Source: Eledone cirrhosa (Eukaryota). Taken from it: DNA of 64,000 nt. This document shows, one piece after another, positions 9,808 to 61,835 of this stretch. Under the pieces are notes generated by a model, which was not told the DNA's origin, made no database searches, and saw only the letters and a list, made by a program, of their open reading frames with translations. The translations under genes and the position numbers were made by a program. The stretch is taken from positions 18,538,001 through 18,602,000 of the forward strand of contig OZ024749.1 of NCBI GenBank assembly GCA_964016885.1, given 5' to 3'. Position 1 is the first letter of the stretch. Each line of letters starts with the position of its first letter.

Positions 9808-11017
9808 TAAGTATGTATGTATACGTACATACATATATGTATACAGACGTACAGTAGCATGTATATATATACATACAGGCACACATATATATATATGCAC
9901 GTATCAGTTTACCGAACATTTATTATAATGCTCGGTTTGTTCGTTTGTAAACAAACAAACAGCCTGAATTACGCCGTACAGTATTGAGGCAACCACGTCA
10001 CCTTTTTGTTCAACACTGACACAGGAACGATGTACTAGTTTCAAGCTTATTAGCTATCGTCAGCACCGTATAGCTTTCTGCTAGATGGTTGAACGTCCGA
10101 AAGTATATACTTTCCTTACGAAAATTAACGGCTGAGCAACCTAATTTGCATATCGAGTGAGTTCAGTCGGCCAGGCGCACCGAAAACGATAAATGGAATA
10201 GAATGAAACGAAATTTCATTCTCACTCTTAGTACGGCACATACTTAAATGTAAGTATGTATGTATACGTACATACATATATGTATACAGACGTACAGTAG
10301 CATGTATATATATACATACAGGCACACATATATATAAGCACGTATCAGTTTACCAAACATTTATTATGATGCTCGGTTTGTTTGTTTGTAAACAAACAAA
10401 CAGCCTGAATTACGCCGTACAGTGTTTAGGCAACCACGTCACCTTTTTGTTCAACACTGACACAGGAACGATGTACTAGTTTCAAGCTGATTAGCTATCG
10501 TCAGCACCGTATACCTTTCTGCCAGATCGTTGAACGTCCGAAAGTATATACTTTCCTTATGAAAATTAACGGCTGAGCAGCCTAATTTGCATATCGACTG
10601 AACTCGCTCGATATGCAAATTAGGCTGCTCAGCCGTTAATTTTCATACGGAAAGTATATACTTTCGGACGTTCAACCATCTGGCAGAAAGGTATACGGTG
10701 CTGACGAAAGCTAATAAGCTTGAAACTAGTACATCGTTCCTGTGTCAGTGTTGAACAAAAAGGTGACGTGGTTGCCTAAACACTGTACGACGTAATTCAG
10801 GCTGTTTGTTTGTTTACAAACGAACAAACCGAGCATTATAATAAATGTTCGGTAAACTGATACGTGCATATATATATGTGTGCCTGTATGTATATATATA
10901 CATGCTACTGTACGCCTGTATACATATATGTATGTACGTATACATACATACTTACATTTAAGTAAGTGCCGTACTAAGAGTGAGAAATGAAATTTCGTTT
11001 CATTCTATTCCATTTAT
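9808..11017. mobile_element. Retrozyme-like family A, 441-bp variant; ~1.8 units on - strand joined head-to-head to ~0.95 unit on + strand
   Basis: Period 441 (10021 vs 10462); strand switch at 10595-10597 with CGA microhomology; HHRs at ~10026-10069 (-), ~10467-10510 (-), 10695-10737 (+); no credible ORF. Confidence 0.8.
10695..10737 (+). ncRNA. Minimal type I hammerhead ribozyme
   Basis: ACGGTG-CTGACGA-AAGCT aata AGCTT-GAAA-CTAG-TA-CATCGT: complete core, perfect stem II, palindromic stem III, GUA triplet. Confidence 0.88.
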
Positions 11018-13483
11018 ATATATATATATATATATATATATATATATATATAAATATATAAATATATATATATATATAAATATATATATATAAATATATA
11101 TATATATATATATATATATAAATATATATTTATATATATATATATATAAATATATATTCATATATATATATATATATAAATATATATTTATATATATATA
11201 TATATAAATATATATTTATATATATATATATATATAAATATATATTTATATATATAAATATATATTTATATATATATATATATAAATATATATTTATATA
11301 TATATATATATATAAATATATATTTATATATATATATATATATAAATATATATTTATATATATGAATATATATATAAATATAAATTTATATATATATATA
11401 TATATTTATATATATATATATATATAAGTATATATTTATATATATATATATATATAAATATATATTTATATATATATATATATATATATATAAATATATA
11501 TTTATATATATATATATATATAAATATATATTTATATATATATATATATATAAATATATATTTATATATATATATATATATAAATATATATTTATATATA
11601 TATATAAATATATATTTATATATATATATATATATATATATATATATAAATATATATTTATATATATATATATTTATCTTTCACCGAACGTGATTTTTCA
11701 TTGCATCTTTTCTTTCCATGATATCCGGATTACATTGAGTTCTTCATACGGATTGGACACTACCGTAAACTCTTGGTAGATTTATCTACGTATATATATA
11801 TATTTATATATATATATATATATATATATATATTTATATATATATATATATATATATATTTATATATATATATATATATATATATATATATTTATATATA
11901 TATATATATATATATATATATTTATATATATATATATATATTTATATATATATATATATATATATATATATATTTATATATATATATATATATATATATA
12001 TATATATATATATATATATATATATTTATATATATATATATTTATATATATATATATATATATATATATATATTTATATATATATATATATTTATATATA
12101 TATATATATTTATATATATATATATATATATATATATATATATATATATATATATATATATAAATATATAAATATATATATATATATAAATATATATACG
12201 GATTGGACACTACTGTAAACTCTTGGTAGATTTATCTACATATATATATATATTTATATATATATATATATATATATATATATATATATATATATATATA
12301 TATATATATATATGTATATATATATATATATATATATACATATATATATATATATATGTATATATATATATATATATATATATATATATATATATATATA
12401 TATTTATATATATATATATATATATATATATATATATATATATATATATATATATATATATATATATATATATATATATATATATATATATATATATATA
12501 TATATATATATATATATATATATATATATATATATATATATATATATATATATATATATATATATATTTATATATATATATATATATATATATATTATAT
12601 ATATATATATATTTATATATATATATATATATATATATATTTATATTTATATATATATATATATATATTTATATTTATATATATATATATATATATATAT
12701 ATATTTATATATATATATATATATATATATTTATATATATATATATATATATATATTTATATATATATATATTTATATATATATATATATATATATATAT
12801 ATTTATATATATATATATTTATATATATATATATTTATATATATATATATATATATATATATTTATATATATATATATTTATATATATATATATTTATAT
12901 ATATATATATATATATATTTATATATATATATATATTATATATATATATATTTATATATATATATATATATATATATATTTATATATATATATATTTATA
13001 TATATATATATTTATATATATATATATATATATATATATATATATATATATTTATATATATATATATTTATATATATATATATTTATATATATATATATT
13101 TATATATATATATATATATATATATATATATTTATATATGTATATATATATATATATATATTTATATATGTATATATATATATATATATATTTTATATAT
13201 ATATATATATATATATATTTATATATATTATATATATTATATTTATATATATATATATTATATATATTATATATATATATATATATATATATATATTATA
13301 TATAATTATAATATATATATATATATTATATATATATATATTTATATATATTTATATATATATATATATATATATATTATATTATATATATATATATATT
13401 TATATATATATTTATATATATATTTATATATATATATATATTTATATATATATATATAATATATATATTATATAATTATATAT
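11018..13483. repeat. (TA)n tract with two short PLE 3'-terminal fragments (11673-11790, 12197-12240)
   Basis: Fragments match 19942-20058 and end at GATTTATCTAC. Confidence 0.9.
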
Positions 13484-13683
13484 NNNNNNNNNNNNNNNNN
13501 NNNNNNNNNNNNNNNNNNNNNNNNNNNNNNNNNNNNNNNNNNNNNNNNNNNNNNNNNNNNNNNNNNNNNNNNNNNNNNNNNNNNNNNNNNNNNNNNNNNN
13601 NNNNNNNNNNNNNNNNNNNNNNNNNNNNNNNNNNNNNNNNNNNNNNNNNNNNNNNNNNNNNNNNNNNNNNNNNNNNNNNNNNN
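13484..13683. other. Assembly gap (200 N)
   Basis: Run of N. Confidence 1.
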
Positions 13684-13870
13684 TATATATATATATATAT
13701 ATATATATATATATATATATATATATATAAATATATATATACATATATATATATAAATATATATATATATATATATATATTATATATATATATATATATA
13801 TATATATAAAATATTAAAAAAATAATGAATAAAACAATGAAACAGTTCCTTATATTAAACAAAAAAAGTT

Positions 13871-14021
13871 CATTATTTAACGATCGTTTCTAGGATATAT
13901 ATGTGTTAGAATTGGCATGCATATTCAACAGATCTATGTACAAAATTATACAAAATTATACAAACTATCAAAATTAAATATACATACCAAACACATATAT
14001 ATGCCGTCTTCAGAAATAATG
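13871..14021 (-). ncRNA. Type I hammerhead ribozyme with extended stem II
   Basis: Reverse complement of 19710-19860. Confidence 0.72.
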
Positions 14022-59945: not shown

Positions 59946-60245
59946 ATATATATAAATATATATATATATATATATAAATATATATATAAATATATATAAA
60001 TATATATAAATATATATATATATATAAATATATATAAATATATATAAATATATATATATATAAATATATTTATATATAGATATATATATATATAAATATA
60101 TATATATTGTTATACTTTGGGAGGGTCATGTTGCCAATAAGAAACACACGCACCAGTTGCTTTCACTTCAATTTATTATATATTTATAAATTTATAAATT
60201 TCTGGTTGGTTGGTTGGTTCCACAACCAGATAGTTGTTTATATAT

Positions 60246-60290
60246 AGTCATAGTTCTTTCGTCACACACTCTGTGACCTCTTCAGTGACT
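60246..60290 (-). ncRNA. Minimal type I hammerhead ribozyme
   Basis: AGTCA-CTGAAGA-g-GTCACA gagtg TGTGAC-GAAA-GAAC-TA-TGACT; identical copy at 35763-35807. Confidence 0.78.
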
Positions 60291-60490
60291 GGGGATTCCT
60301 TTCTTTGTTTCTGTGCCTCTCCTTTGTTCTGTCCTACGCCATTTTGTTTCTGTGTGTGTGTTGTGTGCTCAGTCTGCGCATGCGCCACATCCGGGTGTCT
60401 GTGTGTGTTTATGTTCATTTATTTATCTGTTTATTTACATGTTACTGGTTGGTTGTTTGTTCTATGTGTGTGTGTGTTTTCATTTTGTCC

Positions 60491-60910
60491 TTAATTGTAA
60501 GTTGTGATGTTGCTGTTCCACTCATATTTTCTATTTAATTTTGGTTGTAATTCTTTTATGTTTATTGCCTCTGTAATTTGTCTAAACATTGCGTCTTTTC
60601 TGTGTGTAGATTCTATTTTTATTTCTATGTTCTCTAATTTACCCTTGTGTTCTATCTTAGCATGTTGGTAGAGTACAGATGATTCTTTATTATCTTGAAG
60701 GTCTCGCCAGTGTTTATTTATCCGTTCCCTTACACTACGAGCTGTCTCACCTATGTACACTATATTTTTGTCTCTACATTGTCCTTCAGTACATCTTATG
60801 CTATACACTACATTTCTAGTTTTACAGTTAATATGGGGGCTTATTTTACAGGTTATACATTTCTTATCTATACATGAGGGTCTTCGAAAAGGGTATGTCT
60901 TGCAAGACAT
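60491..60910 (-). pseudogene. GIY-YIG endonuclease fragment with linker C..CxxC
   Basis: CIDKKCITC..NVVYSIRC..YIGETARS..ER..RQITEA..PKLN. Confidence 0.82.
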
Positions 60911-61835
60911 ACCCTTATAATAAATAATAAATATATAATAAATTGAAGTGAAAGCAACTGGTGCGTGTGTTTCTTATTGGCAACATGACCCTCCCAAAGT
61001 ATAACAATATCGGTTTCAACACACGGTTTCAGATAAAGAATCTTGCTAAACAAATTCAGAAACGAAATATATATATATAAATATATAAATATATATATAA
61101 ATATATATATATATAAATATATATATAAATATATATATATATAAATATATATATAAATATATATATATATAAATATATATATAAATATATATATATATAA
61201 ATATATATATAAATATATATATAAATATATATATAAATATATATATATATATTTATATATATATATTTATATATATATATATTTATATATATATATATTT
61301 ATATATATATATATTTATTTATATATATATTTATTTATATATATATTTATATATATATTTATATATATATATATATTTATATATATTTATATATATATTT
61401 ATATATATATATATATTTATATATATATATATATATATATATATATATATATATTTATATGACCATAGAATAATATGGTTAGTTGATTACTCAATGAATA
61501 CAATTTTACAATAGATTAGAAGCACACAACAGTGAGTTTCCCTGGAGTTTTTAATATTATTCAAAATATTAACAAATGAAAAATATTCTCATAATCAAAA
61601 TATATACTTTATTATATATATTTCAGAGGTACTGTGTTGTTTTTTCAGTACGTCCTCATCAGACAAAATATATGATTTGATATATGACATACCGCTACTG
61701 TCTTGATTACACAATTCCAATATTGTACTCCGGAGTAAACAAACCAACCTGCATACTTCGTTGGGTGCTCCAATCTGCATACTGAGTTGTCGACAAACAA
61801 CCAACATATACTCAAAATATGTATATAAATATATA

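Follow-up and report, generated by a model that had tools for sequence, protein, structure and literature searches.

How does a retroelement come to lie in a genome as two inverted pieces, joined head to head, one of which almost always reaches slightly farther at its outer end than the other? The question is raised by a 64-kb stretch of the Eledone cirrhosa genome (OZ024749.1:18,538,001-18,602,000 of the 3.0-Gb assembly GCA_964016885.1), hereafter called the window. Once its (TA)n arrays are masked, the islands that remain are chiefly Penelope-like elements (PLEs) and tandem hammerhead RNA sequences. Ten of them, within 9808-61068, are two-armed, head-to-head insertions whose 3' ends face outward, and an eleventh lies outside this span at 17-5683, in keeping with the roughly eleven that had been counted when the DNA was read without database searches (the sequence-only reading). 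We refer to the upstream 3' end of an element as its short end, to the downstream 3' end as its long end, and to the stretch between the two as the tail. All eleven insertions combine one long and one short end, the short end at 57770-59663 stopping 7 nt early. The sequence-only reading had proposed that separate copies of a family reuse the same pair of ends, that this one-long/one-short rule is common to PLEs and retrozymes, and that both sides of a (TA)n break prime cDNA at two sites on the RNA. All 16 of the end motifs that it named are present, 14 exactly and two off by 1 nt.

Families were named A (13.8 kb), B (60 kb), C (813-aa open reading frame [ORF]), D (22 kb), E (57.8 kb), F (0-5.7 kb), G (24.8 kb), and R (retrozyme), and the genome-wide set comprised about 370 genomic stretches, each given an L number. 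Family A was sampled as 30 loci from a query biased toward long arms plus 40 matches of a tail-free query, family C as the first 100 of 2141 matches to a tail-free pattern, family B as the first 100 of 25,799 pattern matches, family D as the first 30 of 8550, family G as the first 30 of 9949 plus long copies, and the retrozyme as loci anchored on the short end and drawn from 461 matches. Copies of B, C, and the retrozyme were located by exact patterns, which mutated copies escape. Adjacent ends of the same family were scored as a pair when both faced outward and lay no more than 10 kb apart; the count includes a few distant pairs without a contiguity check, and non-identical duplicates were left in. 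Target-site duplications are unreadable inside (TA)n.

Across all sampled stretches, 186 of 189 candidate tail-out pairs combined a long with a short end (family A, 50/50; B, 50/52; C, 44/44; D, 10/11; retrozyme, 32/32). One of the three same-type candidates proved not to be a pair, while a long/long case (L331) and a short/short case (L323) are real. The corrected figure is 186/188, against about half expected (binomial test against 0.5, P of about 5e-53 with copies treated as independent). When retrozyme ends were instead taken by position, using 61 short ends and the first 100 long ends in the first 389 Mb of sequence C1, all 32 outward pairs within 10 kb were again long plus short, where 47% would be expected; this set overlaps the 188. 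Family G, tested last, gave 11/11 among the first 30 matches and 2/2 in long copies, or 13/13. Among 67 family C clusters, the 43 with two alignable arms are all long plus short, five pair a long arm with a short stub of 4 to 15 nt, one has a possible long stub, and two have a partner that starts at an internal site. These last partner arms begin at AU-rich sites, not at the short site (L171:6841 and L197:1154). The long/long exception was also considered as a product of two templates, for which its arms, with just 3 differences in 183 nt, give no support.

The pairing is real, general in this genome, and far above chance. Instead of being scattered, the end points of families A, B, C, D, and G and of the retrozyme fall at two fixed sites each, 36 to 161 nt apart, with same-type pairs limited to 2/188, and the rule extends from PLEs to the retrozyme, as had been proposed. 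The claim that separate copies reuse their end pair holds genome-wide. In the window, the ends at 11789 and 12239 belong to one-armed stubs, and those at 34460 and 37116 to probable local duplicates. The two 287-bp family A copies concerned (34460-34749 and 37116-37403) have an identical inner junction at AACGATCGTT and a common C>T change and, for that reason, most likely derive from one event duplicated locally.

Both ends are very probably target-primed starts of reverse transcription at the two fixed sites. At terminal short sites of family C, extra TTTCATA(TA) units were present in 9/42 cases, compared with 0/49 in read-through copies (Fisher P = 6e-4). The restriction of extra units to terminal sites argues for backward slippage of the primer on an AU-flanked template and against later replication slippage. 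Reiterated long-end units were seen at three family C and two retrozyme junctions; a stricter scan caught 0/24. The sites themselves start with 2 to 6 alternating A/U bases able to pair with the target, a feature that is weak on its own in AT-rich sequence. A separate idea, that the flanking (TA)n arrays were written by slippage of the reverse transcriptase (RT), was rejected, as interruptions in the arrays are independent of end type.

The model that we favor, and consider likely, is asymmetric twin priming, in which both target strands prime on two sites of one RNA. One ribonucleoprotein (RNP) would nick both (TA)n strands, one active site priming at the long site and the other at the short site. 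Each target 3'-OH would pair by 2 to 6 nt with its site, where it might slip and re-prime, and each enzyme would run 5' until it fell off the same RNA, the long-primed enzyme displacing the short-primed cDNA in the part where they overlap; to our knowledge, PLEs have no RNase H. The two cDNA 3' ends would anneal through a few bases and each fill in on the other, so that a separate second-strand primer would be unneeded. We infer a single RNP and a single RNA. Besides the re-priming repeats described above, the twin priming envisaged by the sequence-only reading draws support from template variants shared by the two arms and from the staggered lengths of the arms.

In family C, the arms of one insertion disagree at 3/446 lineage-informative comparisons (28 insertions), versus 11 to 70% between insertions. 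The corresponding values are 17/449 within 32 insertions versus 31% between them in family A and 64/778 within 33 insertions versus 28% in family B, while the divergence of retrozyme arms is 0.20% inside an insertion and 0.98% from one insertion to another (24 insertions), with private variants common to both arms at L206 and L228. At L218 (G000:C1:160405393-160411449), a 12-unit retrozyme arm carries two variants that alternate perfectly at 9 sites, and the short arm matches the outermost long-arm unit. At this one locus, the pattern suggests a heterodimeric circular RNA copied round and round, in phase; transcription from a dimer array is the alternative. In addition, the 5' ends of family C arms coincide within 15 nt in 6/43 pairs, where 0.65 would be expected and none of 20,000 permutations matched, as if both enzymes ran off one RNA end.

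These data bear on a rival scheme, which we consider unlikely, in which an asymmetric dimer holds two RNA molecules, one at each site and usually from the same source locus. Such a scheme would explain multi-kilobase overlaps between arms without strand displacement, and it fits both the discordance in family B and the occurrence of insertions in which family B or retrozyme sequence adjoins a long arm of family C. It is harder to reconcile with a noncoding retrozyme that has hundreds of copies, yet whose arms share private variants (L206 and L228) and the phase of L218, or with family C arm 5' ends that coincide at scattered positions above chance, and it offers no simple reason why identical RNAs never use the same site. 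The heterologous arms themselves lie at L161:5900-9749, where the 5' end of a family C long arm abuts a retrozyme, and at L175:255-2666, where such an end abuts family B sequence that finishes in the B short end; a template jump and a target deletion fit them equally.

A second alternative, improbable in our judgment, is that a single long-site cDNA folds back or forms a hairpin, the short end being cut by an endonuclease (EN) or ended by microhomology. It has precedents in print: PMC3846280 describes a tail of 30 to 40 bp as optional at one of the inverted pseudo-long terminal repeats (pLTRs) and proposes self-priming, and PMC8557442, in which the tail is described as often confined to a single end, invokes EN resolution. 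Near-perfect palindromes do exist (6/43 in family C, family E, and about 20 family A minis), and at the short ends there is AU microhomology with the target. However, a copied-back arm must nest in the first, yet of the 43 family C pairs, 23 have a short arm that extends beyond the long arm on the 5' side, 14 show the opposite, and 6 are level, and in 11 the long arm holds the tail only, which excludes simple fold-back; staggered arms occur in family A too (L037, L039, L042, and L044). Nor would fold-back account for re-priming repeats confined to terminal short sites. As a general route it is largely refuted, but it could survive in the finishing of the central junction.

The inner junctions vary across the genome, as had been noted, the one local duplicate pair apart. 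All 42 family C junctions are different, 33 with 1 to 15 nt of overlap, three blunt, and six with 3 to 21 inserted bases; the overlaps are inflated by BLAST overextension, and their chance level is uncontrolled. About 20 family A minis (about 550 bp, among L004-L052) have arms that both stop at reference 494-525, in the 5' strand of hammerhead stem I (stem at 509). In family G minis of about 400 bp (L344-L370), the arms stop near one pLTR palindrome, with junctions a few bases apart. These stop points are possibly RNA 5' ends. A halt of the arms at the hammerhead cut was considered and set aside, as multi-unit retrozyme arms and long PLE arms run past it. Scarcely credible is the amplification of a few palindromic masters by spread like that of miniature inverted-repeat transposable elements or by segmental duplication, or else the loss of same-ended palindromes, since, although two window minis have a common junction and mutation and the minis of A and of G are similar in size, the 42 family C junctions differ mutually, minis vary by a few bases at the junction and are marked on both arms by variants of different subfamilies, same-ended pairs would be no more palindromic than the long/short ones, and 100 long retrozyme ends yielded not one long/long pair.

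In an in vitro system for target-primed reverse transcription, the Poseidon PAc element was found to have two internal RT start sites that bound the tail, to cut and extend both target strands, and to require sequence 3' of the start site, hammerhead cleavage being dispensable; a dimer was predicted (Frangieh et al. 2024, PMC11167929). In the available portions of that paper, starts are not paired per molecule, the inverted arm is given no model, and the second strand is left open. Poseidon PAc belongs to a clade other than the Hydra-type families (A, C, F, and G) described here. In families A, C, and F, T(A/G)(A)CTC(C/T) stands just 3' of both sites, and RCUC begins 4 to 8 nt 3' of 8/8 sites in A, C, F, and G, against a background of 5 to 6% per site. 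The motif was predicted for G before its flanks were read, and both G sites carry it; because the six A, C, and F sites defined the motif, G is the only independent test. In folding, an RCUC:GAGY stem had predicted probabilities of 0.99, 0.94, 0.68, 0.44, and 0.29 at five sites, and one base pair of the stem varies, being G-C in C and A-U in A. We regard RCUC as a candidate positioning element for the template RNA; its position agrees with the dependence of Poseidon PAc on RNA lying 3' of the start (PMC11167929). In the Hydra-type families, the RCUC stem, repeated just 3' of both sites, would load both subunits of a dimer.

Several observations weigh against asymmetric twin priming on one RNA. 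Insertion does not depend on twin priming in every case, given the two same-type exceptions and the 16/67 family C clusters that are one-armed or unresolved. Arms overlap by more than 4 kb in L082-L085 and L371, which on one RNA would need very long strand displacement, and long arms show no clear pile-up at the short site. The 8% discordance between family B arms is probably for the most part repeat-length noise and age: nine pairs aligned directly showed mainly repeat-length changes and scattered substitutions. Two RNAs of one source locus would share variants, conversion between inverted arms could homogenize them, and the argument from phase comes from a single locus, L218. The RCUC:GAGY stem exceeds 0.4 at just 4/8 sites and is not predicted at three. 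Finally, in Poseidon PAc no difference in start site was seen between the strands, and the start site is said to have no homology to the cut DNA (PMC11167929). We nonetheless retain asymmetric twin priming. In a bolder form, put forward tentatively and with slightly more doubt than belief, a dimer seated on a duplicated RNA element would make one-RNA asymmetric priming the normal route of EN-containing PLEs, replacing second-strand synthesis, and retrozyme circles would be copied by two rolling enzymes via their own site pair.

In LINE-1 (long interspersed nuclear element 1) twin priming, cDNA synthesis from the second target strand begins at an internal position of the same RNA, and the product is head to head with a microhomology junction. 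Only a minority of LINE-1 insertions arise in this way, the internal site varies, and the two pieces abut without overlapping. In contrast, the two-armed product is here the majority outcome (43 to 48 of the 67 family C clusters), with two fixed sites and overlapping arms. A description of the LINE-1 process is given in PMC2837659.

As to the identity of the elements, pLTRs from partial tandems, an inverted 5' arm, and a tail are the hallmarks of PLEs, and all are seen here. Families A and C encode, in a single ORF, an RT with a C-terminal GIY-YIG-like domain and carry RWR and DKT motifs, a CxCX5C linker, and CxxC and CxH motifs; F and G proteins, compared outside the N terminus, have the same linker and EN motifs. 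The Hydra clade is marked by an RWK-like motif, DKT, a CxCX5C linker, CxxC and CxH in the EN, and no CCHH, and its members are generally shorter than 3 kb (PMC8557442). The family C unit (4.18 kb) and family A (about 6.3 kb) exceed this length, and for this reason A, C, F, and G are called Hydra-type only, an assignment made by protein motifs. Family B has a CX4CxxC linker and a C-terminal EN. The Neptune clade is marked by a CX2-5CxxC linker ahead of a C-terminal CCHH endonuclease; the family B linker may be called Neptune-like, although an affiliation with Nematis is conceivable. Family D is a further PLE and was considered, with B and E, as a candidate for the Neptune clade. A motif scan found canonical hammerhead cores in F and G pLTRs, and by eye hammerheads were recognized in A (with a very long stem II, 19699-19860) and in B and C (variant core); in family D a hammerhead was looked for without success. 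The hammerheads were not matched at gathering score in an Rfam scan, and Hydra-type ORFs gave no match in a Pfam scan. Tails measure 134 nt in A, 58 in B, about 161 in C, about 36 in D, about 86 in G, and about 60 in the retrozyme.

The retrozyme consists of noncoding 484-nt units in tandem, all of which carry a type I hammerhead motif; the subfamily at 27.9 kb has a variant core. Non-long terminal repeat retrozymes are known as type I hammerhead tandems for which a circular template and mobilization by PLEs have been proposed (PMC7229834; bioRxiv 10.64898/2026.07.22.740005) and have been tied to PLEs by co-occurrence and pLTR similarity (bioRxiv 10.64898/2026.07.22.740005); fixed ends or a two-armed structure were not found for them in the accessible portions of these two sources. 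The retrozyme described here differs in that it displays the integration signature of PLEs itself and probably includes a copy of a dimeric circle, and it is likely moved by a PLE enzyme. As a side observation, its long site is similar to the short site of family B (9/10 nt downstream; 30287-33796 versus L322), and its short site has GTAAG in common with the family B long site. To judge from the sites, B-like elements may be the mobilizer, with site roles swapped on the circle.

Much of what we describe is already published, and the sequence-only reading, which rightly took inverted pLTRs as known, understated this: the one-sided tail, two RT starts, and in vitro extension of both strands are also in print. 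(TA)n targets are recorded for the Hydra and Naiad clades (PMC8557442), circular templates have been proposed (PMC4209133), and the portions consulted of PMC2377424 and PMC8969392 describe structure only. Like described PLEs, the elements here have a head-to-head inverted, 5'-truncated arm and an often one-sided tail; unlike them, they have tails of 36 to 161 nt, a counted pairing (186/188), and arm lengths that exclude nesting. A literature search found no end-pair counts and no twin priming applied to PLEs, although Evgen'ev and Arkhipova 2005 and Arkhipova 2006 may say more. The near-strict long-plus-short pairing, the shared template, the retrozyme rule, and the repeated RCUC motif appear to be new.

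Table. Elements and component features in the window (positions are those of the 64-kb stretch)
Feature	Position	Strand	Description
Family F (Hydra-type PLE), two-armed insertion	17-5683		Long end left, short end right
Retrozyme, second subfamily	9808-11017		Short end left (1.6 units), long end right (0.9 unit)
Type I hammerhead motif of retrozyme	10693-10741	+	Predicted cut after 10731 (motif scan)
Family A, one-armed stub	11674-11790	+	Ends at long site
Family A, one-armed stub	12199-12239	+	Ends at long site
Family A (Hydra-type PLE)	13806-20058		Short-ended arm, ~4.1 kb (minus); long-ended arm, ~2.2 kb (plus); tail, 134 nt
Family D PLE	22190-24369		Short end left, long end right; tail, about 36 nt
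Family G (Hydra-type PLE), arm	24818-27719	-	Short end left; right side broken by (TA)n and retrozyme
Retrozyme, 484-nt unit	27880-33796		Long end left (5.0 units), short end right (7.2 units)
Family A, mini insertion	34460-34749		Long end left, short end right; joined at hammerhead stem III palindrome AACGATCGTT
Family B PLE (Neptune-like linker), mini insertion	35604-36025		Short end left, long end right; tail, 58 nt
Family A, mini insertion	37116-37403		Probable local duplicate of 34460-34749
Family C (Hydra-type PLE)	49623-54835		Full-length long-ended arm (minus) and 184-nt short-ended arm; tail, ~161 nt
Family C copy, ORF	51317-53797		
Family C copy, pLTRs	49620-50475 and 53801-54654		
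Family E (related to B)	57770-59663		Near-perfect 0.9-kb palindrome; long end right, short end 7 nt early left
Family B insertion with GIY-YIG fragment (Pfam PF01541)	60104-61068		Short end left, long end right

Within the tabulated insertions, the 3-bp overlaps claimed for two inner junctions are present, CGA at about 10595 in the retrozyme at 9808-11017 and a second at 54652 in the family C insertion; the junction of the retrozyme at 27880-33796 lies at 30285-30287, its two ends being ~60 nt apart on the unit. Elsewhere in the window, a decayed apurinic/apyrimidinic endonuclease (APE)-type LINE (5813-8970) adjoins (TA)n at 5684. A 294-bp direct repeat with copies 686 bp apart (40553-41532), possibly a pLTR or retrozyme, ends in (TA)n at 40557 and is followed by a second decayed APE-type LINE at 42100-44801. 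An 87-bp fragment between two (TA)n arrays (59857-59943) recurs beside a family B copy in L281. An F-like hammerhead motif lies on the minus strand at 61600-61680, and an ORF fragment at 62232-62636 is Helitron-like by eye, without a Pfam match.

The origin of inverted pLTRs, the one-sided tail, and the second strand have been stated as open (PMC8557442, PMC11167929), and one rule, long plus short, would explain all three together. The rule can be tested in the published in vitro system, and the pairing serves as a mechanistic fingerprint of retrozymes using PLE machinery. RCUC is a candidate template-positioning RNA element for a telomerase-related RT, and re-priming at the start would be telomerase-like.

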